Source: an uncultured virus (IMG/VR IMGVR_UViG_3300032309_003726) (lineage: Duplodnaviria; Heunggongvirae; Uroviricota; Caudoviricetes). Taken from it: 64,000 nt of DNA. Shown here piece after piece: positions 3,722 through 36,528 of this stretch; the stretch's first letter is position 1, and the number at the start of each line of letters is the position of its first letter. Under the pieces are notes generated by a model that saw only the letters and a list, made by a program, of their open reading frames with translations, was not told where the DNA came from and did not search any database. Both the position numbers and the translations under genes were made by a program. The stretch is from IMG/VR virus record IMGVR_UViG_3300032309_003726, one strand, 5' to 3'.

Positions 3722-3805
3722 GATTGAAAACCTTTTTTAAAATTTGATATATTCGAATCCGTTTGAACAATCAAAATGAAATAAAAACTAAATCATCCTA
3801 ATCTT

Positions 3806-3833
3806 AGTATACGCTAAAAATCAAGAAAGTCTA
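3806..3833 (-). promoter_or_regulatory. Sigma70-like promoter
   Basis: TAGACT-N16-TATACT upstream of the NYN gene. Confidence 0.45.
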
Positions 3834-3859
3834 TGTAAAAATTTGCAAAATTTGAAGTT

Positions 3860-4039: not shown

Positions 4040-4050
4040 GGTTTTCCTAG

Positions 4051-4560: not shown

Positions 4561-4562
4561 TT

Positions 4563-5171: not shown

Positions 5172-5172
5172 A

Positions 5173-6186: not shown

Positions 6187-6187
6187 A

Positions 6188-21184: not shown

Positions 21185-22936
21185 TTAAAAAGATCCAAAG
21201 CAACGGTCAATTTGCATGTTTTGATGTTGAATTCCTAAACTTTCAGCAAAGTCTTGCAAGTCATAGGAGTGATTTAATCCTCTTTGTTGACGATAAACTT
21301 TTTTAACCGCCAAGCGAAAGTCTTCTAAATCCACACCAGTGGTTGTGTTGTTTTCAATATCTCTATGCAACGCATTCATTTTAGCGATTTCTAAAATATT
21401 CGACAACATGGCTCCATTAACACAATTTCCAAGTGTAAAATCGTGTTCATTGTTAACTCTATACAAGGTGTGATTTTTAGAAAAAACGTCGGCTGTTGTT
21501 ATGCTTAAGATAACCTCTTTTTCTTCTTCTTTAGAAAAAGGAACTCCACCAGAATGAATCTTCAATATATCAATTGATGTAATTTCATTTGGCCTATCAA
21601 CTTTAATATGACGGCTGATTCTTCCTGGCCGAGTAATAGCAGGATCCAAAACATCAGCACGATTAGTCATCAGAATTACGATTGGATTCTCTTTTGTTTG
21701 AACGCTATCAATGCCGTCCATTTCTCCTAAAAACATTGGCACTATGGTATCGGCTATATCGCTACTTCTGCGTGTGCCACGTTGGGGCATGATCGCATCA
21801 GCTTCATCAATTGCAAGAATGGCCTTGTAGCCATGTTCACGATAATGCTTTCTACCACGTTCAAACAATTCACGAATTTCTCTTTCGGTATTGCCAACCC
21901 ACTTATCTAAAATTTCTGGAGATTTCACATAAATGTATGCCGAGTCTATTGCTTGTTTTCCATGAGTCTTTGCAATCGAATGAGCACACACTCTTGCAAG
22001 AAGAGTTTTCCCACATCCCGGTGGACCATATAACAAAACTCCACGCAAACCCTCTATGTTATAATGATTAAAAAGATGTGGATACAAAAAAGGAAACTCT
22101 AAAGCACTTTTTAATTCTTGTTTAGCAACATCTAATCCACCAACATCATCCCAACTCACATTCAAATCTTGGGAAATTTTATATTTTGAATGATTTTCTT
22201 TTTCAAGTTTTTTTGTAACAGAAAAAAGATTGTAGTCTGTTAGGACTCTATCGCCTTCTTCTAAGGTAAAATTTTTAGGATTGAAAATTAAAAATTTATC
22301 GCCCTTATATAAGACTTCTATATTTTGATCCAGAACGGCGGATACGATACAAATTGGGCCAGCGGGCAGATCCTCTGCCTTGTCAACTATGGCTTTATTA
22401 TCTGGTTTTACTTTTACTGAGTCGCCTACGCAAAGATCTAAAAATGGCAAACCTTGTATTTCCCATGGCTTGCCATCAATTTGCACAACAGCGTATGTGC
22501 CATCGGCTTTTTGTGTTAAACGAATTTGTGCGGATTGCTCTTGCTTTGAGCCTATAAAAAATCTTTCCTCTGTGTCGTCTACTAGCCTAACAAGAACGCC
22601 ACCGTTTTCATCAACAACACTATCGTAACTCGACGCAAGAACTATCTTGCCGCCTTTTTGAAAATGAGGGCTGTTTTCGTCAACGACAATAATTTCATCA
22701 TTGTTTTTGAAACAAGCAGGATCAACTATCTTGTGAACTTTGAGCAAATAACCATAAACCAAAGGTTCAGAAGATAATTTGGATATTATGTTGTGTTGGC
22801 GAACCAAATCTGATTTGCATTGTTCAATAATTTTTTTTAGTTCAGAAATTTCTTCGTTATGCTGCACGAGCATTCTACTTGTTTTTCTTTGAACTTCTCT
22901 TTCAATGTGTGATTGAATATCTTGTTGGTTTTCCAT
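21185..22936 (-). CDS. arc: Proteasome-associated ATPase ARC/Mpa homologue
   Basis: N-terminal coiled coil, beta-rich interdomain, GPPGCGKT, KSPEILDKWVGNTERxIR, IDEAD..RG..SSD..TIVP, LDPAITRPGR, GAMLSNI. Confidence 0.8.
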   Translation of the reverse strand: MENQQDIQSHIEREVQRKTSRMLVQHNEEISELKKIIEQCKSDLVRQHNIISKLSSEPLVYGYLLKVHKIVDPACFKNNDEIIVVDENSPHFQKGGKIVLASSYDSVVDENGGVLVRLVDDTEERFFIGSKQEQSAQIRLTQKADGTYAVVQIDGKPWEIQGLPFLDLCVGDSVKVKPDNKAIVDKAEDLPAGPICIVSAVLDQNIEVLYKGDKFLIFNPKNFTLEEGDRVLTDYNLFSVTKKLEKENHSKYKISQDLNVSWDDVGGLDVAKQELKSALEFPFLYPHLFNHYNIEGLRGVLLYGPPGCGKTLLARVCAHSIAKTHGKQAIDSAYIYVKSPEILDKWVGNTEREIRELFERGRKHYREHGYKAILAIDEADAIMPQRGTRRSSDIADTIVPMFLGEMDGIDSVQTKENPIVILMTNRADVLDPAITRPGRISRHIKVDRPNEITSIDILKIHSGGVPFSKEEEKEVILSITTADVFSKNHTLYRVNNEHDFTLGNCVNGAMLSNILEIAKMNALHRDIENNTTTGVDLEDFRLAVKKVYRQQRGLNHSYDLQDFAESLGIQHQNMQIDRCFGSF

Positions 22937-22945
22937 AAAATCTCC

Positions 22946-23004
22946 AAAAAAAAGCCCGATGATGTGAGGCTGGAGTCAAACCAGATCGTACACACCACCG
23001 GGCC
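22946..23004 (-). ncRNA. Candidate structured leader RNA / attenuator with T-loop-like arm
   Basis: 13-bp outer stem GCCCGGTGGTGTG/CACATCATCGGGC enclosing CTGG-TTTGACT-CCAG, then T8 and the GGAGA SD of the ARC gene. Confidence 0.45.
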
Positions 23005-23061
23005 ATAAATATATCAAAATATAATATAATCAGCAAATCTGATTTTGATTTGAGTTTTTTG

Positions 23062-23391
23062 TTAGATTACGGAGAACCAAATTTTTTTTGGAGGTTTGGT
23101 GAAATATTTCAATAAAGCTGGGCAGAACCAGCATTTTAGATTTTCTTCTTTCCAAGAATAAAGATTTCCATTTCTCAATGGTTTTTGAAAATCGAGACAA
23201 GAACGACCAAAACGAAAATCTGCAAAATGCACTTCAATATTTTGCATTAGATTGCTTTTTTGACAAGCACGAATTATCACCTCGGGAACCCCATCGGTAA
23301 GGGCCTCTTTGATTAATCCATTTTGTAGATCATCAAAAAACCACAATTTGTTGAGTGTGTAGGGCTTAAAAGAAAAACAAAATTTTTGCAC
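23062..23391 (-). CDS. Hypothetical protein (DUF6717-like)
   Basis: WFFDD...GL..EAL..G...WFCPALLKYF..PP; GTG start after GGAGGGAG. Confidence 0.6.
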   Translation of the reverse strand: MQKFCFSFKPYTLNKLWFFDDLQNGLIKEALTDGVPEVIIRACQKSNLMQNIEVHFADFRFGRSCLDFQKPLRNGNLYSWKEENLKCWFCPALLKYFTKPPKKIWFSVI

Positions 23392-23410
23392 GGCTCCCTC
23401 CGTTGCAAAT

Positions 23411-23446
23411 ATTTTTTGGGGGGCAGTTTTTGCCCCCCAAAAAAAT
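23411..23446. terminator. Bidirectional intrinsic terminator
   Basis: TTTTTTGGGGGGCA-GTTTT-TGCCCCCCAAAAAA. Confidence 0.75.
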
Positions 23447-23695
23447 TTAGGCTAAATATTTTTTATAGATCCAACAAAACAATACACCTCCAACTATTCC
23501 CATAACAAAGCCTGATGGCGAAATTGGACTACCACCCGCACCAATTAAATAGTTGATTAAGCCACCAACATAGCTGCCAGATATTCCGATACCAATTGTT
23601 GGAAGAAAACCTTGTGCTTCATTCCCAGGGTGGAACGCTTTTGCGATTAAGCCCACTAATAAGCCATAAAACAACCAACCAATTATATAAAACAT
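23447..23695 (-). CDS. GlsB/YeaQ/YmgE (transglycosylase-associated) membrane protein
   Basis: IIGWLFYGLLVGLIAKAFHPG...TIGIGISGSYVGG...GIVGG. Confidence 0.85.
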   Translation of the reverse strand: MFYIIGWLFYGLLVGLIAKAFHPGNEAQGFLPTIGIGISGSYVGGLINYLIGAGGSPISPSGFVMGIVGGVLFCWIYKKYLA

Positions 23696-23738
23696 AAATC
23701 CTCCTTTAGTTATGTTCTATTTTATTTAGGATTGTTAA

Positions 23739-24818
23739 TTAAATAGTTAATTGGACCAACTGCTCAACAGGAGGAGGAACCAGATCAAAACATTTAGGAT
23801 ATTCTAATTCTAAACCTAATTTTTTTGCCAGACTCATCGCCTTCTCAGACTCTTGTTTAAAAAGATCAACGTTTTTTTTATTGAGCAACAAATCTCCTAA
23901 TTTTACAATGCCTAATTGGTCTGAAGTAGGGATCATTGTTAGTTTTTCAACATTTAACTTGTGTGCTGTTTCCACCATTTTAGACATTTCGTGAACGTTC
24001 AACATGTTTATATTGTTGTAAATAGAAATTCTGTGTTGTTTTTTGCCACCAAATTTTTCTCTCATTTTAATCCATCTTTTTAAATTCTCTATTACTTGGT
24101 CATACAAATCAAGTCTTCTAATTTTTTTAAAAGTAATTGGATCGGCAGCGTCTAGCGACCAAGAAATATTGGATTTGGTGGTTGAATTAAAAAACTTTAA
24201 TGATGTTTTCTCATTCAAACAAGTTCCATTAGTATTTGTTGTAAATTCTATTTCATTTTTATATTTTTTAAAATCTAATTTTTCAAAAATTCTAAAAACT
24301 GCATCCTTCCAAAAAGGTTCTGCTATACCCAAAACACTTAAAAATCTTAAATAGGGCATTAATGATTTTGCTTTTTCACATAAAAAATCTGTCACATCTG
24401 GTTGGTCTGGTTTGTGAAAGTTTCTTGCACACATAATACAAGCTGGGTTATCCTCATCAGGTGTTTCTCCGCCGATATTGCAATGCTTATCCGGCAAACA
24501 TATTTCTAAAAATATTGGAAAACGAGAATTTTTATAAGATTCAAAATAAAAAGGTTTTTTTAACTTAGTGATAAATGGACAAACATTCCAAGAAGAACAA
24601 ACTGGGTGTAATTTTCCATTTTTTGTAAATTCTCTTACTTCTTTTGCAATAAAACTATTCCAAATATCTAAAACATCTGTTTTTTCATCTAATTTTCCCA
24701 GTTGGGTATGTTGATGGCAGCACATAGAAACTTCACCCCAACTAGTTAATATCACTTTTGTGAAAGGATTAGAGCAAAAAGCAAAATTAGTAGATTGATT
24801 GTCTGGGTTTTTTAACAT
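23739..24818 (-). CDS. SPASM/Twitch-first radical SAM enzyme (paralogue 1)
   Basis: FCSNPF..GEVSMCC..IWNS N-terminal SPASM; HCNIGGETPDEDNPACIMC; GIAEPF; TNTNG; SLDAA; ATG 24818 preferred. Confidence 0.8.
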   Translation of the reverse strand: MLKNPDNQSTNFAFCSNPFTKVILTSWGEVSMCCHQHTQLGKLDEKTDVLDIWNSFIAKEVREFTKNGKLHPVCSSWNVCPFITKLKKPFYFESYKNSRFPIFLEICLPDKHCNIGGETPDEDNPACIMCARNFHKPDQPDVTDFLCEKAKSLMPYLRFLSVLGIAEPFWKDAVFRIFEKLDFKKYKNEIEFTTNTNGTCLNEKTSLKFFNSTTKSNISWSLDAADPITFKKIRRLDLYDQVIENLKRWIKMREKFGGKKQHRISIYNNINMLNVHEMSKMVETAHKLNVEKLTMIPTSDQLGIVKLGDLLLNKKNVDLFKQESEKAMSLAKKLGLELEYPKCFDLVPPPVEQLVQLTI

Positions 24819-24872
24819 AAAATAATTTAGTGTATTATGTATTAATAAAATGTATATTAAATTATTAGGTGA

Positions 24873-26417
24873 ATGATGAGATATTATGGACTTTATGGTG
24901 GATTTCACGATTCCGGAATAGCAGTGTTGGATGAAAGTGGAAACTTAGAATTTTATGCCCACGCTGAGCGTTATGGAAGAAGACTTAAAACCGAAAATAA
25001 TCTTAGCGATATATTAGATTTCATACCTCCACCTAGTAAAGAAGATATTGTTTGCGTTCCTCCTTTGGGTCAAAACAATGAACTAATAGAAGGACAACAT
25101 CCAGTTGTTGCGATGAAATCAAAATTCAATGACTGGATGAAAAAACAAATAAGATATGAAGCAAATTATTGCGTAAGTCATCATTTGTGCCATATTTTAT
25201 CTTCTTGGTTTTTTAGAAAAAATGATGAAACTAGATTTGCTTTAGCTTTTGACGGAGCGGGACCAAATGCAGATGGCACAACTTTAGGAAGTTGTTTTTG
25301 TGGAATGATTGGCGAGGATGGTTTTTCTTTAAAGATTGTAGATCCGCCTATACCGAGTAGTTGTAGTTTGGGATCCATGTTAGGGTTTAATAGCGCAGGA
25401 AAGGCCATGGGTTTAGCAGGATTTCTTGAAAACAAAAATGAAAAATTCTCTGATGAAGATGTTGTTAGATTGGTTGAGTCTTTCACAAAACCTTACATGC
25501 CTCCCCCTGCTTGGTTATGGACTCCGGGTTCTTTAGAGTTTATTCCGAGTTTTCCTTGGTTTCCAAACCCCTCCGAAGAGGATCTTAAATTTATAGCGAA
25601 ATTTTATAATTTTTGGATAAATCGCATATGGAACTCAATAGAATTAAACTTACAAAATTTTATACCCAACAAAGAATTGGGCATAGTAGTTGGTGGCGGA
25701 ACATGTTTGGCACTTGAATTAAATACAAATATATCAAATTACACAAAAGACTTTGTTTTTGGGCCAGCTATAAACGATAGTGGATTAGTTTTAGGTGCGG
25801 CATGCTATGGTTATTTTCTAGATAAAGGAAAATGGCCAGCAGCTTTAAATACTCCATCAATCATGTATCTTCAAGAACCTTTACCGAAAACTGGAGTTCA
25901 AGAACCAAAAGAAGTAGCAAAATTAATTGCGCAAGATAAAGTTGTGGGCTTGCTTCGTGGAAAAGCGGAGTGTGGACCTAGAGCTTTGGGCTTCAGATCC
26001 ATTTTGGCAAACGCTAGTAAATACCAAAATTTAAAACGTGTTTCACAAGATCTAAAAGGAAGAGAATACTATCGACCACTTGCTCCAATGGTCACGGAAG
26101 AAAGTTTTAATCGATACTTTACTGGCCCAAAAGGAGAATACATGCAATTCAAGTGCGATTGCACTCTCGCAGCGCAAACCGAGTGTCCTGCTATAGTACA
26201 CAAGGACAACAGCAGCAGACCTCAGGTTGTGTGCAAGGATAGGGATCCTTGGTTGCATGAATTACTTGTCGAATATGGAAAAATGACCGGGAGCGAGTGC
26301 TTGATAAATACAAGTTTAAATGGTCCGGGAAAACCTATATGTAACACTTACAACGATGCTCTTTTGGATTTTGAGGACAAGGACATAGAACTAATTTCAA
26401 TTCCTTTAGATGATTAA
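24873..26417 (+). CDS. O-carbamoyltransferase (CmcH/NodU family)
   Basis: HDSGIA, HHLCH, DGAG, GKAMGLA, ECGPRALGFRSILA, REYYRPLAP, LINTSLN. Confidence 0.9.
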   Translation: MMRYYGLYGGFHDSGIAVLDESGNLEFYAHAERYGRRLKTENNLSDILDFIPPPSKEDIVCVPPLGQNNELIEGQHPVVAMKSKFNDWMKKQIRYEANYCVSHHLCHILSSWFFRKNDETRFALAFDGAGPNADGTTLGSCFCGMIGEDGFSLKIVDPPIPSSCSLGSMLGFNSAGKAMGLAGFLENKNEKFSDEDVVRLVESFTKPYMPPPAWLWTPGSLEFIPSFPWFPNPSEEDLKFIAKFYNFWINRIWNSIELNLQNFIPNKELGIVVGGGTCLALELNTNISNYTKDFVFGPAINDSGLVLGAACYGYFLDKGKWPAALNTPSIMYLQEPLPKTGVQEPKEVAKLIAQDKVVGLLRGKAECGPRALGFRSILANASKYQNLKRVSQDLKGREYYRPLAPMVTEESFNRYFTGPKGEYMQFKCDCTLAAQTECPAIVHKDNSSRPQVVCKDRDPWLHELLVEYGKMTGSECLINTSLNGPGKPICNTYNDALLDFEDKDIELISIPLDD

Positions 26418-27352
26418 TTAAGTAGACAATTAAATCGCTTGTTTGTCATTCTCATTATAGACGACATACAATAAGAAGGTAAGGGCATTTCGTGTCTAAA
26501 TATTTTTTTAATCAAATTTTTATTTAGAGATTTATTGATCAAATCATTTAATTCTTTTATCAACAAACACAAAACTCCTCTTTTGCCAACATTAAAACAA
26601 TGAACAGCGTGTATAAATTTTATTTTTTTAAATATTAACTCAAAATTATCAAATCTACCATAGTTTGCAAGAAAAATATGTTCTTGCGAAAATATAAAAC
26701 TTTCATCAAAATCTAATTTTTTTATGTTATTTATCTTTTTTTGTTTAAACAAATAGTGCATACAAATTTCATCATGTAAACTCTTAGAAGAATAATGTGG
26801 TATCACTTTGTGAAGTTCTTCATAAAAGTTTTCATTTTTCAAAGCTTCAACTATTGTATCGTTCCAAATTTCAAGCACTTTTTGATTTTGTTCTAATTTA
26901 TGATTAAAGTAAAAAAATCCGGTGTTAGCAGGTAAACAACAAAATTTACTATCGAGATAAGATTCACAAGATAAAGGTAAAAAGGGTCTGACAAAAAAAA
27001 TATCGGAGTCTACAAAAATTATATTATCCTCTGTTAAAAATTTAATATTTTTAGAAATATCTGATACTTTAGAACAGATTTTCCAGTATCTTGGGGACGA
27101 AGTGTCAACACTTGTTTTAGTTTTTACAACTTGAAAATTTAACGCTTGTTGAAATTCATCCCAATCTTTTTTTGGTCTTTCAAAATCACTAACATCTAAA
27201 ATCGTAATAGGAATTTTTTTATGAAAAGACCTAATTGTAGCAATAGATAAGACCACAGGATTTATTAGATCTTCATGTGGTTTAATATTAATATTATCAT
27301 TCCACCAATGATAAATAACATGTTTATTGTTTTCATTACAAATATTTAACAT
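26414..27352 (-). CDS. GT-A glycosyltransferase-like protein
   Basis: IFVDSDI, NTGFFYF, HDE. Confidence 0.6.
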   Translation of the reverse strand: MLNICNENNKHVIYHWWNDNINIKPHEDLINPVVLSIATIRSFHKKIPITILDVSDFERPKKDWDEFQQALNFQVVKTKTSVDTSSPRYWKICSKVSDISKNIKFLTEDNIIFVDSDIFFVRPFLPLSCESYLDSKFCCLPANTGFFYFNHKLEQNQKVLEIWNDTIVEALKNENFYEELHKVIPHYSSKSLHDEICMHYLFKQKKINNIKKLDFDESFIFSQEHIFLANYGRFDNFELIFKKIKFIHAVHCFNVGKRGVLCLLIKELNDLINKSLNKNLIKKIFRHEMPLPSYCMSSIMRMTNKRFNCLLN

Positions 27353-27374
27353 AAATTTATTTAGAATTATTAAA

Positions 27375-28475
27375 ATGCTTAAAAATCAAGGTCAAAACCC
27401 CAACTTTAAAAATAAAAAACACATAATTTATAGTTTTTGTGAAATGCCGTTTAGACACGTAAAAATAAACGTCACGGGTGATGTGACAATGTGTTGTTAT
27501 CAAGAAAAATTTCTAGGTAATGTTTTCAAAGACAATATCATAGAAATATGGAATAATAGTATTTCAAAAGAAATAAGAAAAAAAACTTTAAACGGAGAGT
27601 TGCATAGTAATTGTCAAGAATGGGGAGGGTGTCCTTATATAAACAAAAACTTAAAAGAAAATAATCAAAAAGTATTTTTTTTAGAAGATTGTCCAGTGTC
27701 TTTGGAGATAGATTTGCCACCAACACATTGCAACATAGGTGGAGAAAATCCAAATGATAAAAATCAAGCTTGCATAATGTGTCCCAGAAATTTTGATGTT
27801 TTTCGAAAAAGCGAAAATTTCAAATTAAATAATACAAAAAAAATTATAGACTCAATAAAGTGTATTGTTCCAAATCTAATTTTATTCTCCGTTTTGGGTG
27901 TGGCTGAGCCTTTCTACAAGGACTTAATTTTTGAAATTTTTGAAGAAATAGAATTTAAAAAATATCAAAATAATATTAATTTTTGGACTTACAGCAATGG
28001 TTCTATTTTTAACGAATTTTTACAAAAAAAATATCTAGAAATAGTAAAAAAATCATTTATTTATTTTTCAATAGACGCTGCCACAAAAGAAACTTATAAA
28101 AGTATCAGGAGAAGAGATTTTTTTGAAATAATTCAAAAAAATCTAAATTTATACAACAAAATAAAAGGAGAAAACCATCGAAGTATAATGTATAACAACA
28201 TAAATACTTTAAACGTGAAAGAAATGGAAGATATGGTAGTCTTTGCCAAAGATAATAATTTTAATGAAATTCAATTCAATCCCACTCACGACTGCGGATC
28301 ATTAACATCAGAAAAAACGATACAAGAGATAATGGTTACTAAAGATAACGTATCTGTTTTTTTAGAGAACTCTCAAAAAGCAAAAGAAAAAGCAAAAGAA
28401 ATAAATATGCCCATTAAAATGGTGAGGGAATTTGAACAAGTAGCAGGGAACGACTTGATACAATTAACTATATAG
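27375..28475 (+). CDS. SPASM/Twitch-first radical SAM enzyme (paralogue 2)
   Basis: FCEMPF..GDVTMCC..IWNN; HCNIGGENPNDKNQACIMC; GVAEPF; SIDAAT; ATG 27375 preferred. Confidence 0.8.
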   Translation: MLKNQGQNPNFKNKKHIIYSFCEMPFRHVKINVTGDVTMCCYQEKFLGNVFKDNIIEIWNNSISKEIRKKTLNGELHSNCQEWGGCPYINKNLKENNQKVFFLEDCPVSLEIDLPPTHCNIGGENPNDKNQACIMCPRNFDVFRKSENFKLNNTKKIIDSIKCIVPNLILFSVLGVAEPFYKDLIFEIFEEIEFKKYQNNINFWTYSNGSIFNEFLQKKYLEIVKKSFIYFSIDAATKETYKSIRRRDFFEIIQKNLNLYNKIKGENHRSIMYNNINTLNVKEMEDMVVFAKDNNFNEIQFNPTHDCGSLTSEKTIQEIMVTKDNVSVFLENSQKAKEKAKEINMPIKMVREFEQVAGNDLIQLTI

Positions 28476-29529
28476 TCAACTGTATCAGCCGTTCGGTATA
28501 GCCCAAATCTAAAGGACGCAAAAAGTTAACCGGCTGTCCTAGTTTATTGCACTCTTCAATAATATCTTGTTGAGCTTTTGCAAACAAACCACAATTTTTT
28601 TCATTAACTAAAATTTTGTGATTAAATCCATTTGTTGGATTAAATTCAACATGTTCCGCCCTTGCCTTGTGTGCAATTCGACACATCTCAACAACCTCAT
28701 GCACATTCATTATGTTAATATTATTGTGAATTCTTAGAAATTGTTTTTCACGCACACGCTCTTGGTCAAAAGCGTACATGTTTTCCAAAACTTTATCAAA
28801 ACAATCAAATATTCTTATAGCCTTAAAAGTTTCTGGCGTAGCGGCGTCTATTGAAAAATTAGTGATAGAATTTGGGGCACGTCTAAGATACTGCTCACGT
28901 ACATTTTGTTTTAATAAGGTTCCATTTGTAGTAATACTTAAAGTAATTTGTTCTGCGTGGTTATCATATTCTAAAATATCCATAATTTCAAACAACAAAA
29001 AGCCATCTTGTCTTGTTTGATAAAAAGGTTCCGCTATTCCTTGAACGTGTATTTGATAAAGGTTGGGAACGATGTGTTTAATTTTTTCAAGAACTTCAAA
29101 AAGATGATTTTTCTCTGGGCGAAAAACTGGACTTGATCGCTCACACATAACGCAGGCTGGAGAGTGTTCCGGGTGAGGTTTTAATCCGCCAACATTACAG
29201 TGAGTATTTGGAAGATCTATTTCTAAGAAATTAGGATACTCATTGTAAATAAAGTTCTGAATGGGGTATGGTTTTTTAAGCGGCAAATAAGGACAACCTG
29301 GACATTGGCACTTTTTATGCAAATTGCCTTTGAGTGTTTCGTGTCTTATTTCTTCAGCAATTTCTCCAAACCAAACCTCATCAAATGTATTATTCAAAAC
29401 ATTGCCGATGTAAGCATCCTCCTCTGCTTTAAGAGGATCTGGTCTCATAAAGCAACAAAAAGAAGCGTTGCCTTCGGATGTTATTCTTAGTCTATTAAAC
29501 GGAAAAGCACAAAAAGCATCGCCCCACAT
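28468..29529 (-). CDS. SPASM/Twitch-first radical SAM enzyme (paralogue 3)
   Basis: FCAFPF..GNASFCC..VWFG; HCNVGGLKPHPEHSPACVMC; GIAEPF; TTNG; SIDAAT. Confidence 0.8.
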   Translation of the reverse strand: MWGDAFCAFPFNRLRITSEGNASFCCFMRPDPLKAEEDAYIGNVLNNTFDEVWFGEIAEEIRHETLKGNLHKKCQCPGCPYLPLKKPYPIQNFIYNEYPNFLEIDLPNTHCNVGGLKPHPEHSPACVMCERSSPVFRPEKNHLFEVLEKIKHIVPNLYQIHVQGIAEPFYQTRQDGFLLFEIMDILEYDNHAEQITLSITTNGTLLKQNVREQYLRRAPNSITNFSIDAATPETFKAIRIFDCFDKVLENMYAFDQERVREKQFLRIHNNINIMNVHEVVEMCRIAHKARAEHVEFNPTNGFNHKILVNEKNCGLFAKAQQDIIEECNKLGQPVNFLRPLDLGYTERLIQLTI

Positions 29530-29562
29530 AAAAAACCTTTCTGCATTAATTAATAATATGTA

Positions 29563-29919
29563 TTATTTCCACAAGCCATCTTCAATTTTAATTGCATTGT
29601 CTAGATTGGAATTAAATATGTAAGTATAGGCTTTGCTGCCATCTTGTAAAATTATTTCCTCACGACGAAAAAGACCTGTGTTTACGCATTCGTAACGGTC
29701 CAAATCATTAAAAGCCCGCTCTGGAATTTTATACAATTCCCCCTTAACGCCGCCTTTTGTTGTTGAGTCAAAAACCATACCAGGAAAGTTTCCAACATCA
29801 TACAAGTGGTAGTCTTCATTTGTAATCACTTCGCCCAAAAAAGCCGCTGGGGCATTTTTTAACATTCTGTGGGCACTGAATCCTTTTTTTAAAGTGCCAT
29901 AACAAAAAAAATCAGCCAT
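29563..29919 (-). CDS. Gamma-glutamylcyclotransferase (AIG2-like)
   Basis: FCYGTLKKG, FPGM, VKGELY, LDRYE; ATG 29919 after AGGAG. Confidence 0.9.
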   Translation of the reverse strand: MADFFCYGTLKKGFSAHRMLKNAPAAFLGEVITNEDYHLYDVGNFPGMVFDSTTKGGVKGELYKIPERAFNDLDRYECVNTGLFRREEIILQDGSKAYTYIFNSNLDNAIKIEDGLWK

Positions 29920-29980
29920 TGATTTGCTCCTAAAGAGAGTTAACAATCTTAAATAAAATAGTAAATTATTTGAGGTAAAA

Positions 29981-30676
29981 ATGCAAGGAAGCAAAAAAGA
30001 TTCGTATTGTATAATAACCTATTGTGGTAAAAACTACAAAAAATGTCTAGATCTAACTTTACAAACTTGGAAATCGGACAAGATTCTGGTGTTCTCTGAC
30101 ACAAAAGAATTTGGAACACAATTATTTCAAAACGAAACAAGTGATTTTAATGAAAGTTGCCGAAGGAAAATCTTCACAATAAAATATTGCTTGACGAATA
30201 ATATTCACGAAAATATTGTTTACTTAGACTCCGACATTTTGATGACTGATTTTATTGGAGAAATTTTTAGTAACAATTTTGATATTTGCGTTACAAGAAT
30301 GGTACACAGGTCGGATACAGGGGGAGAGAAAGATATAAATGCCGGGGTGTCTTTTTGGAGACCCAACCAAAAAACAATACAATTTTGTGAACAATGGTTG
30401 GAATTAGAAAAACAATTTCAAAAAACAGAGCGGTTTCCAGAGCAGCACGCTTTTTCGCATCTTTGTTACAAACAATATGACTCACTGTGTGAAGTTCGAG
30501 TAACAAATATCTCCGAAAGAATTTATAATTTTGAACACGACGAAGAAAATAAATTTTTTGAATGGCTAACAGTCTATAAGCCAAAAATAATTCATCTAAA
30601 AGCAAGAAGATGGGAGAAAAAAGAAATAATGAAAAAATTAGAAAAAATGTTAAATTTAAACTTTGAGATACCTTAA
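29981..30676 (+). CDS. Nucleotide-diphospho-sugar transferase (GT-A)
   Basis: VYLDSD, INAGVSFW, PEQ, YN, IIHLK. Confidence 0.7.
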   Translation: MQGSKKDSYCIITYCGKNYKKCLDLTLQTWKSDKILVFSDTKEFGTQLFQNETSDFNESCRRKIFTIKYCLTNNIHENIVYLDSDILMTDFIGEIFSNNFDICVTRMVHRSDTGGEKDINAGVSFWRPNQKTIQFCEQWLELEKQFQKTERFPEQHAFSHLCYKQYDSLCEVRVTNISERIYNFEHDEENKFFEWLTVYKPKIIHLKARRWEKKEIMKKLEKMLNLNFEIP

Positions 30677-31396
30677 AAGTTTATCACAATCGCTTAAAGA
30701 TTTATATTTTTTTTGTTCTGGGGTCATGTTTTCGATGCTTATTACTAATAATTTTTTATCAATATCTTTTTCTTCAATTAAATATTGCCTTAAAATAAAG
30801 AGACAGAAATTATTTTTTGGAAAACCAACGGTAACTTGTCTTTCTACCTTTATATTTACCTCGGGGTTGTGTTCATCGAATTTTTTGTGAATCGAATCTG
30901 GGTGGAAATTGTATTTTTTTTCATACACAACGCTCCAAACAAATCGCTCAAAAATTCCACCATTCACCATAGCGTAAACCAACTTATCACTATTTTTTAA
31001 GTTCATCGGTACCGGTTGGTGAATTTCATTAAAACTTTTTCCTACCTTGTCTTCTGGATACCAATGACTAGGAAAACAAACATGAACACTACTCAGGTGG
31101 TCTTTTTCACCATCAATTCTATGAATTAAAAAATCTTCGTCTGTCTCTTTTATCAAATCAATATATTTGGTGTTTTTGAATTTTATTGGATAATTATCCA
31201 ATAAAAACTTTTCACAAATATCATTAAATTCTTGTGGGTGGTTGTATTCAAAAAAACATTTTTGATTTTTTAAAGCACACGCTTTCTCCTGTTGAATAGC
31301 GGGGGAATCTGCTCTATTTTTTTCAAACACATCATCCAAATTTATTTTTTTTAAATCTGGAAGGGTGGTATACCCTTTTTTGTAAACATGAAACAT
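30656..31396 (-). CDS. Heme-dependent oxidative N-demethylase alpha-subunit-like (DUF3445)
   Basis: EDFLI, VCFPSHW, KVGKSFNEIHQPVP, ERFVW, KVERQ. Confidence 0.75.
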   Translation of the reverse strand: MFHVYKKGYTTLPDLKKINLDDVFEKNRADSPAIQQEKACALKNQKCFFEYNHPQEFNDICEKFLLDNYPIKFKNTKYIDLIKETDEDFLIHRIDGEKDHLSSVHVCFPSHWYPEDKVGKSFNEIHQPVPMNLKNSDKLVYAMVNGGIFERFVWSVVYEKKYNFHPDSIHKKFDEHNPEVNIKVERQVTVGFPKNNFCLFILRQYLIEEKDIDKKLLVISIENMTPEQKKYKSLSDCDKLLRYLKV

Positions 31397-31409
31397 AGCA
31401 ACTTTGCAA

Positions 31410-32726
31410 CTAAGCGGCTTCGTTTTTGCTCATCAACTCAGGCTTCTTTTTATTCAAAACAACATCAACATCGACCAGATAGGACTTTCCAGAACAGTCG
31501 TCTGAAAGATCAAAGTAAAGGTCTGTCATGAACTCGCCAAGAACACTTCTTAAAGCACGTGCTCCAATTTCTTTTTCAATAGCGATCTCCGCAATTTTTG
31601 TGACGGCTTCATCGGTGAATTGGAGATCAACGCCCTTGTAAGACATCTTCTTCCGCTCCTGTTTCAGCAGGGCGTTTTTGGGTTCTTTTAAAACACGAAC
31701 CAAATCACCTACAGAGAGTTCTTCCAAAGAACTAATCACAGGAAGCCTGCCGATTAACTCTGGTATCATGCCAAATTCAATAAAATCATCTTGGCGAACT
31801 TGCTTCATCACATCGTTGTATTCTTTTCTTTCGTCAACAACCTGATTTTCAACATTAAAACCAATAGCAGTTTTTCTTAAGCGACGACGAATAATGTCTT
31901 CTAAACCAACAAAAGCGCCACCAACAATAAACAAGATGTGCGTTGTGTCAATTTGAATGTAATTCTGCTCTGGGTGTTTACGGCCTCCTTGAGGCGGAAC
32001 GTTACAAACTGTTCCTTCTATCATTTTAAGAAGACTTTGTTGAACGCCTTGTCCACTAACATCTCTTGTGATAGAAACATTTCCGCCAGTGGATCGAATT
32101 TTATCAATTTCATCAATGTAAATAATGCCTCTTTGTGCTTCCTCAACGTTGTAGTCTGCTGCGACTAAAAGTTTTAAAAGCAAATTCTCAACATCTTCTC
32201 CAACATAACCAGCCTCAGTAAGCGTTGTAGCGTCACCGATTGCAAAAGGAACATTAAGTTTTTCAGCTAAACTTTTTGCCAATAAAGTTTTGCCGCTGCC
32301 CGTTGGTCCAACAAGAAGAATGTTGTTTTTTTCAATCTCAACATCCTTAAGATCGGGGTCTTCTATAGAACACTCACCTGAGTTTTTTAAGGATTTTAAT
32401 TCGTAACTATCTATCAATCTTTGATAGTGATTACTGACTTCTACCGATAGTTTCTTTTTGGCAACATCTTGGCCAATTACATATCGATTAAGGTGCTGGT
32501 ATAGTTTAACAGGACTTGGAACATTTAATTTCTTCAAGTCCTCTGATCGCATACTTGAAATTTTTTCAGCGAGTGCTTCCTCGCAACTTTTAATACAACT
32601 ATAACAAATGTAAACAGGGTGTTCGTCACCAAGACCATTTCCTTGAACCAAAGGACCGGTCATTTTTTTAGTTTGTCCGCAAAAACAGCACGCACTCATT
32701 TTATTTTCCTTGAAAGTTTCGCTCAT
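31410..32726 (-). CDS. clpX: ATP-dependent Clp protease ATP-binding subunit ClpX
   Basis: CCFCG..ICYSC Zn finger, VIGQ, GPTGSGKT, TEAGYVGEDVE, IYIDEIDK, RKHP, IGF loop, GARALR. Confidence 0.95.
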   Translation of the reverse strand: MSETFKENKMSACCFCGQTKKMTGPLVQGNGLGDEHPVYICYSCIKSCEEALAEKISSMRSEDLKKLNVPSPVKLYQHLNRYVIGQDVAKKKLSVEVSNHYQRLIDSYELKSLKNSGECSIEDPDLKDVEIEKNNILLVGPTGSGKTLLAKSLAEKLNVPFAIGDATTLTEAGYVGEDVENLLLKLLVAADYNVEEAQRGIIYIDEIDKIRSTGGNVSITRDVSGQGVQQSLLKMIEGTVCNVPPQGGRKHPEQNYIQIDTTHILFIVGGAFVGLEDIIRRRLRKTAIGFNVENQVVDERKEYNDVMKQVRQDDFIEFGMIPELIGRLPVISSLEELSVGDLVRVLKEPKNALLKQERKKMSYKGVDLQFTDEAVTKIAEIAIEKEIGARALRSVLGEFMTDLYFDLSDDCSGKSYLVDVDVVLNKKKPELMSKNEAA

Positions 32727-32783: not shown

Positions 32784-33806
32784 TTATTTTTGATCCAAAA
32801 GAACTCGATTTTTAGACAAATATTCTTTCCAACGATTTTTAAAGTAGGAATGATTGTGATCAAAAGTTGCTTGCAGATCCAACTCGCCTTCTTTTTCAAC
32901 TTGTTTTACAGTTTTGTTTTGATAGTGGTGAACAAGTGGAGCGTAAAGTGAATAAATCTTTTTCCCACCTTCTTTCAGTCTCAAAGAAAAATCAGAGTCT
33001 TCGCAATAAGCGAATTTGAGATGTTCATCGAACAAACCAAATTGATCGTAGGTCTCACGTGGTATGCAAAAGCACCAACCTGGGATATAGTCAACACGTT
33101 CTCCATTCGCCCCGCCAAATCCACGACCATCAGCATTAAGGTGTCCTCCCCAATAACCAACTTGAGCATATTCCGGGTTGTTTTTTAAAAATGCTATCAT
33201 GGTGTTGTCCCAATTTTCAAAAACTTTGGTATCCGAGTTTAGCAGAACGACGTAGGGACTTTCTCCGAGAGCGATCATCTCATTATTTGGAACCACAAAT
33301 CCAACATTTTTCTCTCGTCTTATGGTTGTTAATTTATAATGTTTATCTTTGTTTGGATCATATTTTAACAATAAATTTTGTATATAGTCTTGCGTCTCTT
33401 TGCCAGATGCATTATCCCAAATAAACAAATGATAGTTTTTTGTATATTTTTGTATAGAATCAACACAATCTTTGATATAGTCAAGTTGATCACGAACAAC
33501 AATTAATATGTCTTTCCAATCGTCTGTGGTCTCGTCTCCCAATTTTAATTCTTTTTTTACTTGTTCAAAATGATCCTCGAAATTTTTATAAGTACCATTT
33601 AATTTTTGATCATTCCTATAGCGGTGCCACATCTCAGCGTTGCACTCTTCGCTACAAACGTGAACTTGAAAAAGAACATCTATCCATTTGGTAAAAGAAG
33701 AACACCAACGACACTGTCCTAGTTTTGGGCTTTTGGTCACATAAGAGTATTCAAATTCAAATCTCTCGTTTGATAAAGCCGTGGGGTACTTTTGTTCGAA
33801 TTTCAT
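32784..33806 (-). CDS. GT2 glycosyltransferase with N-terminal Zn finger
   Basis: CRWC...VCSEEC; WDNAS, NVGF, LLNSD, GLFDE, EDSD. Confidence 0.8.
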   Translation of the reverse strand: MKFEQKYPTALSNERFEFEYSYVTKSPKLGQCRWCSSFTKWIDVLFQVHVCSEECNAEMWHRYRNDQKLNGTYKNFEDHFEQVKKELKLGDETTDDWKDILIVVRDQLDYIKDCVDSIQKYTKNYHLFIWDNASGKETQDYIQNLLLKYDPNKDKHYKLTTIRREKNVGFVVPNNEMIALGESPYVVLLNSDTKVFENWDNTMIAFLKNNPEYAQVGYWGGHLNADGRGFGGANGERVDYIPGWCFCIPRETYDQFGLFDEHLKFAYCEDSDFSLRLKEGGKKIYSLYAPLVHHYQNKTVKQVEKEGELDLQATFDHNHSYFKNRWKEYLSKNRVLLDQK

Positions 33807-34621
33807 ATGGTGTAAGTAAAAGCAACTTCTCCTAAACTTTTAATTTTAACAATATCGTTCATTTGTATCAAATCAAAAGTTTCCTCAATCAAATTTTGCT
33901 TTTTTAATAGATCTTCTTTTGTATAAACTTTTTTACCCCATCTAATATCCAAAGTTAATTTATGGTGATCTAAATCATAGGTGTTAACACCGTGATAAAC
34001 ATAAACATACTCATTGCCATCCAAGACTGGGGCTATAGACCCTTTTAACATCAACTTCTCAAGAACATTCAAATCTTCCTCGCAACAACTTTGAGCCCCA
34101 CGCTCAGGATAAAAATTTTCCCACATGTGAAAAAGAGACTTATAAAACATCACCGAGCCACACAAGAATCTGTGGGAGTATTCTGATTCATTGAGCCAAT
34201 CGCACCAATATACTTCTTTTGAATTAGCGAAATACTTTAAAAAATTTGAATACAAAGAAGCAACATTTCTATTATCGCTCTTTAAGCACTTATATTGATT
34301 GGTCAATCTGTTGGGGTGGTACAGATCGTCATCGTCCCATTGACAAATTATTTCGCCGGTGGCCAATTCAATAGATGTGTTTCTCATGGCCCCTAATGTC
34401 AACATAGTTGGAGCAGCAAGAAAAAGAATATCGTCTCTTGATAAATCTTTTATATATTTTTCTATTTTTTTATTAGTATCATCATTGCTTTGACTCAATA
34501 TAATTAAATTTTTATTTTGATAATTTTGATTTACATAACAAAAAATTGATTTTTTTAATAATTCAAAACGATCTTTGGTCACACAAACACAAGAAATTAG
34601 TGGTAATTTTCCCGAAATCAT
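33803..34621 (-). CDS. GT2 glycosyltransferase
   Basis: PLISCVCVT, QNY, LGAMRN, QWDDDD, EED. Confidence 0.85.
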   Translation of the reverse strand: MISGKLPLISCVCVTKDRFELLKKSIFCYVNQNYQNKNLIILSQSNDDTNKKIEKYIKDLSRDDILFLAAPTMLTLGAMRNTSIELATGEIICQWDDDDLYHPNRLTNQYKCLKSDNRNVASLYSNFLKYFANSKEVYWCDWLNESEYSHRFLCGSVMFYKSLFHMWENFYPERGAQSCCEEDLNVLEKLMLKGSIAPVLDGNEYVYVYHGVNTYDLDHHKLTLDIRWGKKVYTKEDLLKKQNLIEETFDLIQMNDIVKIKSLGEVAFTYTI

Positions 34622-34623
34622 TT

Positions 34624-36321: not shown

Positions 36322-36528
36322 TTGCTAGTCCTATCCAGAAAAAGGGATGAAAAAATCCTTTTAAAATTGAACGAAAAAGAACAAGTCGAACTGACAGTGG
36401 TTAGAATTGATTCAAACAAAGTCAGGTTGGGCATTCAAGCCTCAGACTCTGTTACCATTCTAAGAAGTGAGTTAGTTGACAAAAACACCTCAAATCTTAA
36501 CACTCTGAGTGATTTGACAACGAATTAA
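36322..36528 (+). CDS. csrA: Second CsrA/RsmA paralogue
   Basis: TTG start after GGAGG; MLVLSRK...KVRLGIQA...ILRSEL. Confidence 0.85.
   Translation: MLVLSRKRDEKILLKLNEKEQVELTVVRIDSNKVRLGIQASDSVTILRSELVDKNTSNLNTLSDLTTN

Follow-up and report, generated by a model that had tools for sequence, protein, structure and literature searches.

Why would a single phage carry three radical SAM enzymes whose auxiliary domain precedes the catalytic core, and on what might they act? The question is raised by a stretch of 64,000 nucleotides from an uncultured caudoviricete (IMG/VR IMGVR_UViG_3300032309_003726), hereafter the window. Its source is a huge contractile-tailed phage, with a nearest relative of 458,813 bp (G001), and it holds three intact radical SAM paralogues, called here A, B and C:

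23739..24818, minus strand: paralogue A, 359 aa from ATG, clade A
27375..28475, plus strand: paralogue B, 366 aa from ATG, clade B
28468..29529, minus strand: paralogue C, 353 aa, clade C

The full open reading frames of A (23739-24908, minus strand) and B (27327-28475, plus strand) would give 389 aa from a GTG at 24908 and 382 aa from a TTG at 27327, respectively. Homologues favour the inner ATG starts: P0001, 95% identical to B, also has 366 aa, and the A orthologue in G001 (locus L002, 4329-5408) likewise has 359 aa. The 3' ends of B and C overlap by 8 nt. Pairwise identity is 40% for A-B and 36% for both A-C and B-C, and all three proteins retain every conserved cysteine and motif. A preliminary description had assigned to them an N-terminal twitch/SPASM domain, a Cx13, Cx13 or Cx14 spacer followed by Cx2C, the motifs G(I/V)AEPF and NNINxxNVxE, and an L(V/I)QLTI end; each feature was found in all three.

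The inverted domain order is confirmed by Pfam, which places SPASM (PF13186; E 1.8e-6, 1.7e-10 and 7.2e-10 in A, B and C) before Radical_SAM (PF04055) in every case, with core scores of 36.4 bits for B, 31.1 for C and 24.8 for A, the last below the cut-off of 29.5 bits. The N-terminal domains are as follows:

24576..24779, minus strand: twitch (half-SPASM) domain of A, PF13186; Cys 15, 33, 34, 74, 80
27435..27635, plus strand: twitch domain of B, PF13186; Cys 22, 40, 41, 80, 86
29290..29514, minus strand: twitch domain of C, PF13186; Cys 7, 25, 26, 74, 79, plus C76

The five conserved cysteines of A lie in the pattern FCxxPF-x-G-x4-CC ... LHxxC-x5-CP, and C40, C41, C80 and C86 of B are invariant across 49 sequences. 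Positions 6-87 of the family profile match the twitch domain of BtrN (163-245, E 1.2e-4), the sole radical SAM enzyme among the solved chains matched at E<0.01. Judged by this profile match, the family's N-terminal domain and the twitch domain at the C-terminus of BtrN are homologous, and the former is expected to bind a single auxiliary [4Fe-4S] cluster through four of its five conserved cysteines. A review presents SPASM/twitch domains as C-terminal extensions (PMC9012708).

The loops predicted to carry the SAM-cleaving cluster are these:

24423..24485, minus strand: cluster loop of A, HCNIGGETPDEDNPACIMCAR; Cx13Cx2C; Cys 113, 127, 130
27726..27788, plus strand: cluster loop of B, HCNIGGENPNDKNQACIMCPR; Cx13Cx2C; Cys 119, 133, 136
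29137..29202, minus strand: cluster loop of C, HCNVGGLKPHPEHSPACVMCER; Cx14Cx2C; Cys 111, 126, 129

The motifs themselves read HCNIGGETPDEDNPACIMC in A (Cx13), HCNIGGENPNDKNQACIMC in B (Cx13) and HCNVGGLKPHPEHSPACVMC in C (Cx14); the GGEP position is occupied by GIAEPF in A and C and by GVAEPF in B, and the third motif is NNINMLNVHE, NNINTLNVKE and NNINIMNVHE, respectively. Both Cx12-14Cx2C and G[IVN][AS]EPF are present in 51/51 sequences (three from the window and 48 homologues at E<=1.6e-50). The first cysteine is conserved in all 127 near-full-length members of our sequence survey, 3-14 residues ahead of CxxC. Its spacer measures 11-14 residues in 119 of the 127 (76 Cx13, 36 Cx12, 6 Cx14, 1 Cx11); the eight short-loop members (6 Cx5, 2 Cx3) are scattered on the tree, where they require 7 changes. 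Because the first cysteine is universal, its spacing largely constant and the short loops scattered, the long spacer is, as read from the alignment, a canonical CxxxCxxC loop bearing a conserved insert of 9-11 residues. The HCN of the family aligns with that of canonical members such as P0093 (HCNTTCIMC), the insert sequence IGGxxPxxxNPA is specific to the family of A, B and C, and insert positions G4 and P8 do not vary among the 76 Cx13 members. In the AF2 model of B, the blocks spanning the loop have pLDDT 92-95. The motif had been taken as the mark of an undescribed subfamily; it is real and conserved, but amounts to a canonical loop with an insert, for which QueE offers a precedent.

Both predicted structures, of B (pLDDT 92.2, pTM 0.89) and of C (pLDDT 94.7, pTM 0.91), have the radical SAM fold as modelled. 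Residues ~106-355 superpose on the solved cores of Mmp10, NifB, viperin, BlsE and SkfB (VIA Z 16-17), and the best Foldseek match is DesII (E 6e-9). The twitch domain would be followed by a partial TIM-barrel core, with the SAM-cleaving cluster presumably held by the HCN cysteine and the CxxC pair. Taken together, A, B and C are probably active radical SAM enzymes of one almost wholly phage-borne family.

This family comprises ~262 clusters at 50% identity, borne almost only by uncultured phages; a scan with a single peptide pattern found cellular homologues only at three Bdellovibrionales/Bdellovibrionia MAG loci, and two of the three proteins have long N-terminal extensions without a Pfam match. 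On the tree, A, B and C belong to different deep clades, and all three clades include orthologues from the huge-phage contigs L003 and L014 (the closest to A being L014:7839-9071 and L003:7279-8394); by this phylogeny the paralogues are anciently duplicated. Two to four paralogues occur in 15/55 locus groups. A more distant relative, P0180, shows Cx5Cx2C and the canonical domain order, fused to GT4/GT1 domains. No member is found in PHROGs or in 50,697 GenBank phage records, and full-text searches for radical SAM enzymes with an N-terminal twitch or N-terminal SPASM domain turned up no paper. A, B and C score below every NCBIfam cut-off, and the family has no characterised or solved member. 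The earlier reading as an undescribed subfamily stands for an uncharacterised group but has to be tempered, since the twitch-first order itself is already curated (NF033640).

The genes around the paralogues bear on the substrate:

24873..26417, plus strand: NodU/CmcH-type carbamoyltransferase, Carbam_trans_C E 5e-48, divergent from A
26414..27352, minus strand: GT-A-like protein of 312 aa, probable glycosyltransferase by structural likeness, divergent from B
29563..29919, minus strand: GGACT/allophanate-hydrolase-C-like protein, PF06094 E 2.9e-20, PF21986 E 8.1e-10, downstream of C
29981..30676, plus strand: nucleotide-diphospho-sugar transferase (GT-A), PF03407 E 3.3e-11
31410-32726: ClpX, 1.9 kb from C

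The flanking carbamoyltransferase announced in the preliminary description is secure, with a further match to phrog_1601 'Nol-like carbamoyltransferase' (E 4.5e-64) and one to the NCBIfam NodU model (E 4.5e-36) that stays below cut-off. The flanking glycosyltransferase is less so: the product of 26414..27352 has no Pfam or PHROG match, and its likeness to GT8/Nucleotid_trans comes only from the structure that the Atlas itself predicts for it (TM 0.61-0.67); an orthologue sits in the same place in L001 (7040-7978). Elsewhere the window has at least six GT2 genes (Pfam), four methyltransferases, a second carbamoyltransferase, a sulfotransferase, DegT, WbqC, a hexapeptide transferase and GT47. 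We also took a census of 45 dereplicated locus groups with at least two neighbour ORFs each, many of them from related phages, so that common neighbours partly reflect synteny and not function. NodU-type carbamoyltransferases, sulfotransferase-like genes, DUF6734 and 2OG-Fe(II) oxygenases each occur in 8/45 groups, GT25 in 6 and GT2 in 5.

This context favours sugar or glycan tailoring, without settling it; such a role is the likeliest for A, B and C, at about even odds. Several observations weigh against a sugar substrate. No nucleotide-sugar enzyme directly adjoins A, B or C, and fold searches do not discriminate substrate type, the sugar-acting DesII, BlsE and viperin not being separated from the peptide-modifying SuiB, CteB, SkfB and anSME. 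The two Bdellovibrionales/Bdellovibrionia loci whose flanks are informative (L021, L022) are surrounded by housekeeping genes or genes of no related function. Other such observations, concerning T4-like phages, C39 peptidases and an OTCase-like cassette, are given below with the substrates to which they point.

Protein or peptide maturation, unlikely in our estimate, would have the enzymes modify a phage structural protein, such as a fibre, or a small precursor peptide, with the carbamoyl- and sulfotransferases decorating the same polypeptide. Most SPASM/twitch relatives are indeed protein or peptide maturases, the four peptide-modifying enzymes just named are among the fold neighbours, and sub-threshold NCBIfam matches are mostly to peptide or metalloenzyme maturases. 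In marine T4-like phages a single copy, with a 2OG-Fe(II) oxygenase beside it, has tail-fibre genes (Peptidase_S74, Laminin_G_3) on one side and sheath genes on the other, a setting that fits protein modification as well as it does glycan work; C39 peptidases are found nearby in 4/45 groups, and in L003 small ORFs of 90-108 aa lie between the peptidase and the cassette. Yet no RiPP recognition element or precursor was found, none of the 887 neighbour ORFs contains 6 or more collagen-like GXY repeats in a row, and by their coordinates in the window the intergenic gaps around the genes all stay below 99 nt. Moreover, the sole significant sequence match to a solved radical SAM enzyme, BtrN, acts on a carbohydrate-like substrate, and NodU-type carbamoyltransferases and GT-A proteins are typical of sugar tailoring.

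Somewhat less probable still is a role in carbamoyl or ureido chemistry, the substrate being a small metabolite, a nucleotide or a base in DNA and not a glycan: a carbamoylated nucleoside-like compound, for instance, or DNA hypermodification, some phage pathways of which use radical SAM enzymes. Carbamoyl-phosphate-dependent enzymes lie within about 6 kb in 11/45 groups (8 NodU-type, 3 OTCase-like), and the three OTCase-like genes are accompanied by ADI/DDAH-like and AIRS-like genes, a cassette indicative of small-molecule chemistry on amino acids or ureido compounds and not of a glycan. GGACT/allophanate-hydrolase-C-like genes recur in 5/45 groups, the HD_4 phosphohydrolase is the commonest neighbour (13/45), and BlsE and viperin, nucleoside or nucleotide enzymes, rank high in the fold searches. 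Against this, HD_4 and ClpX may be plain synteny of one phage lineage, a window scan of ORFs of at least 100 aa, some of them excepted, revealed no hydroxymethylase, base kinase or DpdA-like gene, and the window's set of glycosyltransferase and sugar-modification genes is very large.

If sugar or glycan tailoring is the correct reading, the scaffold would be built by the phage's many glycosyltransferases, and the paralogues may differ in the position or residue of it from which each abstracts a hydrogen atom. The auxiliary cluster could then accept or donate the second electron, in a BtrN-type oxidation or a related epimerisation or deoxygenation, while the neighbouring carbamoyl-, sulfo- and glycosyltransferases would add groups to the same scaffold.

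There remains the shared C-terminal tail:

23742..23759, minus strand: tail of A, LVQLTI
28455..28472, plus strand: tail of B, LIQLTI, pLDDT <50
28471..28488, minus strand: tail of C, LIQLTI, last three residues with mean pLDDT 63

The earlier claim of a common LxQLTI tail survives in that all three proteins have it and that, of the 129 ORFs in the window that reach 50 aa, only these three do; it is patchy among homologues, however, with 36/127 (strict) or 48/127 (loose) near-full-length members and at least 21 changes on the tree, and is therefore not essential to catalysis. Tail-less members (79-91/127) include the T4-like clade, the Bdellovibrionales forms and the fused forms. The pattern L(V/I)Q(L/I)x(I/L/F), in the models of B and C the region of lowest confidence, is most likely a poorly ordered, family-specific linear motif, which would probably dock the enzymes to a common partner or close over the active site.

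A tail-mediated hetero-oligomer, or a single docking partner common to the paralogues, is compatible with any substrate, although we think it improbable as a specific proposal. The tails are near-identical in proteins only 36-40% identical overall, and among the 1070 ORFs of G001 the pattern is confined to the three orthologues and two ORFs of 55-57 aa. The low model confidence of the tail and the multiplicity of paralogues in 15/55 locus groups are in keeping with docking, and tails are slightly more alike within than between genomes (4.33 vs 3.78 of 6 positions; permutation p 0.04; 6 genomes, 15 tails), a weak effect. Conversely, the tail-bearing genes of L063, L072 and L085 have no other family member for at least 3.3 kb to either side, which speaks against a role between paralogues only; tail-less members are common, the neighbourhood census shows no partner gene whose occurrence follows that of the tail, and gene conversion at the overlapping B/C 3' ends could also keep tails alike.

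We consider it very unlikely that the tail is a degradation tag by which the phage's own ClpXP removes the enzymes at a set time of infection. ClpX does read short non-polar C-terminal tags, its gene is close to C and is found no more than about 6 kb from relatives in 9/45 groups, and G001 also encodes ClpP. The tail nevertheless has no close likeness to LAA or MuA-type tags, the proximity of ClpX may be lineage synteny, and the examined flanks of the tail-bearing L063, L072 and L085 contain no ClpX.

How do these enzymes compare with known systems? NF033640 (N_Twi_rSAM) has the same inverted order and is the best NCBIfam match of A, B and C, colinear over model positions 3-67 and about 160-310. 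With 70.1, 77.7 and 79.6 bits, respectively, they fall short of its cut-off of 170 and so are not members by NCBI's rule, and the model also gives sub-threshold matches in 14/14 control genomes. A true member, P0057 (292.6 bits), has a canonical CNFKCRIC and no LVQL tail; we know of no characterised member of NF033640. BtrN (PDB 4M7T/4M7S), the twitch radical SAM dehydrogenase of butirosin biosynthesis, differs in its C-terminal twitch domain, its canonical cluster motif and a core that is not specifically alike, and it is not among the matches listed in fold searches. The review describes for it a single auxiliary cluster, bound by four cysteines, and a carbohydrate-like substrate that it oxidises by two electrons (PMC9012708).

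QueE (7-carboxy-7-deazaguanine synthase) lacks a twitch domain; no QueE model in NCBIfam matches A, B or C, and the B. subtilis enzyme (5tgs) ranks 32 in the VIA list (Z 11.6). That Cx14Cx2C is known from some QueE enzymes, as the preliminary description stated, agrees with a published account of QueE with a CX14CX2C motif, in which the loop separating the first two cluster cysteines is extended and the site is otherwise canonical (PMC4389238). DesII (8HZV, TM 0.50), BlsE (7VOB, Z 16.1), viperin (5VSL, Z 16.4) and AprD4 (6FD2, Z 11.0) share the core fold, and the setting of A, B and C among sugar-tailoring genes resembles theirs, but at 8-18% identity and without N-terminal twitch or insert; peptide maturases (SuiB, SkfB, CteB, anSME) score about equally. 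Canonical PF04055 plus PF13186 enzymes have the same two domains, in permuted order, and distant homologues with the domains in their usual arrangement (P0049-P0056) have in common CNxxCxMCPRN and a twitch domain that starts with CxxPW...G...PCC; on top of the canonical SPASM/twitch plan, A, B and C carry the loop insert and the C-terminal tail.

The three radical SAM paralogues of the window, A, B and C, are intact genes:

23739-24818, minus strand: radical SAM A, 359 aa, intact; homologues favour an inner ATG
27375-28475, plus strand: radical SAM B, 366 aa, intact; homologues favour an inner ATG
28468-29529, minus strand: radical SAM C, intact

The ORF calls for A and B extend to longer GTG and TTG starts, respectively. 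Pairwise identity among the three proteins is 36-40% (A and B, 40% over their full length). The sequence features claimed in a preliminary description are all recovered: an N-terminal SPASM-type domain (PF13186 at 28.6, 41.4 and 39.4 bits in the three proteins, for a cut-off of 21.5); the motif HCN(I/V)GG...AC(I/V)MC, with first-to-second Cys spacings of 13 (A), 13 (B) and 14 (C); G(I/V)AEPF and NNINxxNVxE in each protein; and the C-termini LVQLTI, LIQLTI and LIQLTI. The SPASM/twitch signature sought was that of a Cys-rich auxiliary-cluster domain, Cx9-15Gx4C followed by further Cys, and in B it reads C22-x12-G-x4-C40C41 ... C80-x5-C86. Behind this domain, the expected radical SAM core passes the Pfam gathering score of PF04055 (29.5 bits) in B (36.4) and C (31.1), while A falls below it at 24.8 bits. 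Radical SAM enzymes hold their SAM-cleaving [4Fe-4S] cluster on three cysteines, canonically CxxxCxxC, located early in the core. All three are kept in A, B and C, at a predicted cluster site of non-canonical spacing (Cx13Cx2C, Cx13Cx2C and Cx14Cx2C).

B and C are convergent and their 3' ends share 8 nt (28468-28475). This overlap, CTATATAG, is a perfect palindrome, so that T-I-stop is encoded on both strands, and it is possible because the two tails are identical. The same 8-nt overlap is found at 9088-9095 in L001, a locus from a close relative; in G001, the nearest virus record (locus L002), the B and C orthologues lie ~1 kb apart and are separated by a 64-aa fragment matching the family C-terminus. 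A scan of 23000-31500 returned promoter (37 vs 35.6) and terminator (6 vs 4.7) counts no different from those of shuffled sequences. The cassette further comprises the carbamoyltransferase (24873-26417), a GT-like gene (26414-27352) and a GGACT-like gene (29563-29919). A small partner peptide of the carbamoyltransferase was considered, but the intergenic gaps on its two sides, 54 nt and none, leave no space for one.

A, B and C belong to a family that is real, old, uncharacterised and largely phage-borne. A word-indexed search gave 48 homologues at E<=1.6e-50 and nine distant ones. When 1.84 billion representatives were searched exhaustively with a profile, 262 clusters passed E<=1e-30. Loci were recovered from IMG/VR (15) and from a metagenome collection (70). 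A tblastn search of 50,697 GenBank phage records with B or a T4-like-clade protein gave no match, and PHROGs has no family for these proteins. When one genome per species was screened with a single peptide pattern (185,579 species), only three cellular loci appeared, all in Bdellovibrionales/Bdellovibrionia MAGs; two of the three proteins carry long N-terminal extensions without a Pfam match, and the two loci with informative flanks (L021 and L022) are surrounded by housekeeping or unrelated genes.

Several homologues are fusions. The fused forms of Bdellovibrionales type (P0077, P0081, P0083, P0090, P0091, P0096, P0112 and P0095) have N-terminal extensions in which no Pfam family was found. 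Four other proteins (P0064, P0067, P0076 and P0103) are fused to a 'GWAWDP...GDGxHGF' repeat domain that has no Pfam match at E<=1, matches only unnamed Atlas clusters (nearest named, Big_7 at 0.82) and retrieved only itself in a word-based homologue search. A sulfotransferase-radical SAM fusion was considered for P0127 but finds no support (Sulfotransfer_1, E 0.32; BLASTP against the sulfotransferase-like neighbour of locus L014, E 0.13). Three metagenomic proteins (P0143, P0144 and P0152), each one chain of 1431-1927 aa, string together three or four radical SAM + SPASM modules in tandem, and one of them has a B12-binding domain as well; they look like the fused counterpart of multi-paralogue cassettes.

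The unusual cluster spacing is a property of the family. All 51 sequences first examined combine Cx12-14Cx2C with G[IVN][AS]EPF. Among 127 near-full-length, dereplicated members, the first spacing is Cx13 in 76, Cx12 in 36, Cx14 in six, Cx11 in one, Cx5 in six and Cx3 in two; these counts cover every member, so the first Cys is kept in 127/127. In alignments, HCN coincides with that of canonical members (P0093, HCNTTCIMC, for example), and the extra residues fall between the N of HCN and the second Cys. The eight short loops, P0093 and P0097 among them, require seven changes on a FastTree tree, so the long loop is ancestral in the family and was trimmed several times. The insert has the consensus H-C-N-I-G-G-x-x-P-x-x-x-N-P-A-C-I-M-C-x-R, with G4 and P8 invariant in all 76 Cx13 members. 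Given the HCN register, the ancestral long loop and the conserved insert, the motif is, as judged from sequence, a canonical loop with a conserved 9-11-residue insert and no different cluster site.

The paralogues are themselves old. In a tree of the 127 members, A, B and C fall in three separate deep clades, and the huge-phage contigs L003 and L014 have orthologues of each. L001 contains B, C and members of two further clades, with no A in the 17 kb covered. The cassette is reshuffled among relatives. Two to four paralogues occur in 15 of 55 dereplicated locus groups.

The C-terminal tail is less uniform than the three proteins suggested. Its strict form (L[VIMA][QN][ILV]x[ILFVYC] <=6 residues from the end) is present in 36/127 members and a loose form (an LVQ(L/I)-type core within the final 12 residues) in 48/127, so that conservation holds for part of the family and fails in the remainder, including the marine T4-like clade (C-terminus ...PFHNGYLK) and the fused Bdellovibrionales-type forms. 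Both sides of the tree have it, and >=21 changes are required, which suggests an old motif that has frequently diverged or been lost. The tail is family-specific: 3/129 window ORFs carry it, namely A, B and C, and, among the 1070 ORFs of G001, only the three orthologues and two ORFs of 55-57 aa. The tail may contact a partner, a second copy or the enzyme's own active site. It would suit a shared docking partner or a hetero-oligomer, whatever the substrate, and we consider this reading unlikely. In three loci (L063, L072 and L085), a tail-bearing member is the sole family gene within >=3.3 kb on either side, so the tail cannot serve paralogue joining alone. Tails are slightly more alike within genomes (4.33/6) than between them (3.78/6), a weak signal from six genomes (p 0.04) that is also explicable by gene conversion. 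A ClpXP degron, equally compatible with any substrate, would likewise use a short terminal motif; it is very improbable. In the structural models, the tail is the lowest-confidence part (pLDDT <50 in B; mean 63 for the last three residues of C).

The source is a very large contractile-tailed phage. G001, a virus contig of 458,813 bp with an estimated completeness of 91%, shares 24% of sampled window 31-mers, runs colinear with the window in reverse orientation, and encodes a tail sheath and ClpP (115555-116061). Phage-type genes of the window comprise two T4-type RNA ligases, a sigma-70 region-2 protein, ParB, HNH, a DNA methylase and ClpX, the last with a zinc finger and located 1.9 kb from C (31410-32726). 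The sugar-modification set is unusually large: at least six GT2 genes with Pfam hits, four methyltransferases, two NodU-type carbamoyltransferases and a sulfotransferase, together with DegT, WbqC, a hexapeptide transferase, TauD and PhyH dioxygenases and GT47. An island at 32784-63267 includes:

32784-35448, 40021-40830, 43652-44353 and 45880-46692: GT2 genes
51991-53535: second carbamoyltransferase
54316-55230: GT47
57667-58278: sulfotransferase
59184-59774: short DegT-like ORF

The island also holds the four methyltransferases (class I), PhyH, TauD, an LRR protein, the hexapeptide transferase and WbqC. The ClpX/GT2 block is bordered by a PRPP synthetase (36525-37589) and by a gene resembling the alpha subunit of haem-dependent oxidative N-demethylase (30656-31396; PF11927, E 4.6e-21). 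Other parts of the window carry an RNA-repair-like set (3062-6231 and 10671-11822) of NYN nuclease, Rv2179c-like 3'-5' exoribonuclease, metallophosphoesterase, an RNA ligase with PHA02142 OB domain and a T4 Rnl1-type RNA ligase; an MscL-type mechanosensitive channel homologue (6188-6613; PF01741, E 8.3e-17); and a 583-aa AAA+ ATPase (21185-22936) whose top PADLOC models, TRIP13 (E 1e-18) and IetA (E 7e-18), may reflect generic AAA+ similarity.

To describe neighbourhoods across the family, ORFs were called in 89 loci, with flanks of +/-6 kb, and 887 of them clustered by BLASTP. Dereplication at 85% radical SAM identity left 55 groups, 45 of them with >=2 neighbour ORFs, and representatives of recurrent neighbour clusters were annotated with Pfam.

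Recurrent neighbours of the family (groups out of 45)
HD_4: 13/45
Unnamed 256-aa protein of the T4-like cassette: 10/45
ClpX: 9/45
Unnamed 178-aa protein: 9/45
NodU-type carbamoyltransferase: 8/45
Sulfotransferase-like: 8/45
DUF6734: 8/45
2OG-Fe(II) oxygenase: 8/45
Transgly_assoc: 7/45
GT25: 6/45
GGACT/AH_C: 5/45
GT2: 5/45
C39 peptidase: 4/45

Three settings emerge, in a signal that is partly synteny because many loci come from related phages. The first, which includes this window, consists of huge-phage multi-paralogue cassettes with carbamoyl- and sulfo-transferases near ClpX. The second, in marine T4-like phages, has a single copy, arranged GT25 - DUF6734 - unknown(s) - radical SAM - 2OG oxygenase, between tail-fibre and sheath genes. 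Collagen-type protein glycosylation by this cassette (GT25 plus 2OG oxygenase) was considered and rejected, as no (GXY)x6 run exists in the 887 neighbour ORFs. The third, in phage contigs, reads AIRS-like - OTCase-like - (sulfotransferase) - unknown - radical SAM - ADI/DDAH-like, which suggests carbamoyl phosphate supply or use; the phage-like contigs L052, L072 and L088/L090/L076 show it around a single family member. A carbamoyl-phosphate enzyme lies nearby in 11/45 groups. The shared theme is group transfer onto hydroxyl or amino groups, carbamoyl chemistry foremost. The carbamoyl component would also suit carbamoyl-centred chemistry on small molecules, nucleotides or DNA bases, an alternative we regard as quite unlikely for A, B and C.

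The AF2 models obtained for B and C have high confidence (pLDDT 92.2 and 94.7), the loop insert included (block pLDDT 87-96). Residues ~106-355 are predicted to form a partial (beta/alpha)6 TIM barrel that superposes on many radical SAM cores. Among solved enzymes, VIA gave high scores to Mmp10 (Z 16.9), NifB (16.8), viperin (16.4), BlsE (16.1) and SkfB (16.0), and the best Foldseek match was DesII (E 6e-9). No subfamily is prominent in these fold searches, and peptide-acting and sugar-acting enzymes score alike. Protein or peptide maturation is a rival reading that we hold to be unlikely. Sugar or glycan tailoring by A, B and C has, in our estimate, about an even chance of being correct. Every paralogue would act on a sugar residue by activating one of its C-H bonds, the twitch cluster would serve as electron relay, as proposed for BtrN, the twitch radical SAM dehydrogenase of butirosin biosynthesis, and the same pathway would carbamoylate, sulfate and extend the glycan.

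A more elaborate proposal, which we advance as speculative and rather improbable, is that the twitch-first, long-loop family forms a phage-specific toolkit in which several paralogues of ancient divergence dock on a shared partner via the L(V/I)Q(L/I)x(I/L/F) tail and work as an assembly line, using radicals to modify C-H bonds of a glycan, carbamoylated and sulfated, that belongs to the virion or the infected cell. A host reductant or a scaffold might act as the partner; a search of G001 for a phage-encoded reductant found neither Flavodoxin_1 nor Fer2. The IGGxxP insert beside the cluster might take part too. For radical SAM enzymes we know of no description of either this chemistry or this kind of arrangement.

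Auxiliary-cluster radical SAM enzymes catalyse reactions that rank among the most difficult of natural-product and glycan chemistry. The present branch, uncharacterised throughout (about 262 clusters at 50% identity, almost all from uncultured phages), combines three textbook departures: its helper domain comes first, its cluster loop has a conserved insert and its tail is family-specific. It forms cassettes of two to four old paralogues beside carbamoyl-, sulfo- and glycosyl-transferases. Identifying the substrate would tell what very large phages make with their many sugar genes, and whether the insert serves to tune reduction or the access of substrate; new biocatalysts might also result. 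The branch is a worthwhile enzymology target rather than a surprise in principle.

How far it departs from known systems can be stated for each feature. The review PMC9012708 defines SPASM and twitch domains as C-terminal extensions, the twitch being a truncated form with one auxiliary cluster. In A, B and C the domain instead lies at residues ~6-105, ahead of the core. BtrN is the sole solved radical SAM enzyme matched by the family profile (E 1.2e-4), and its C-terminal twitch domain (residues 163-245) aligns to family positions 6-87. The CNxxCxMCPRN motif and the start of the twitch recur together in distant homologues of usual order, so the domain order is a true permutation. We found no open-access literature on radical SAM enzymes with an N-terminal twitch or N-terminal SPASM domain; searches combining huge phage, radical SAM and glycosyltransferase found only Borg work, and those combining phage carbamoyltransferase, radical SAM and sulfotransferase found nothing related. 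Known anti-phage defence, prokaryotic viperin included, was rejected, as PADLOC gave nothing specific: its models do not match A or B, and C matches pVip at 18.4 bits (E 2.8e-4) within the generic core only.

The proposal of an undescribed subfamily stands in part. The top NCBIfam match of A, B and C is NF033640 (N_Twi_rSAM), a curated family with the same architecture, an N-terminal twitch followed by the radical SAM core, so the order itself is already catalogued. The matches are colinear (model positions 3-67 and about 160-310), yet A, B and C score 70.1, 77.7 and 79.6 bits, under the curated whole-protein cut-off of 170, and the model also yields sub-threshold matches in 14/14 control genomes. 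Nine other members or relatives score 60.7-112.1 bits; one of them, P0185 (94 bits), has its best match in another family. P0057, a true member at 292.6 bits, has the canonical motif, unlike A, B and C. On these profile scores, the uncharacterised family is a sister of NF033640, outside its membership. With QueE of the extended-loop type (CX14CX2C; PMC4389238), the only common point is the idea of such a loop: no QueE model in NCBIfam matched at E<=0.01, and B. subtilis QueE reaches a VIA Z of 11.6, under 31 other radical SAM entries. All three oddities therefore vary themes already known, the twitch-first order being curated in a sister family, the long loop being of QueE type and the tail being a short linear motif, and the family is a variant of known architectures, with no new enzyme class.
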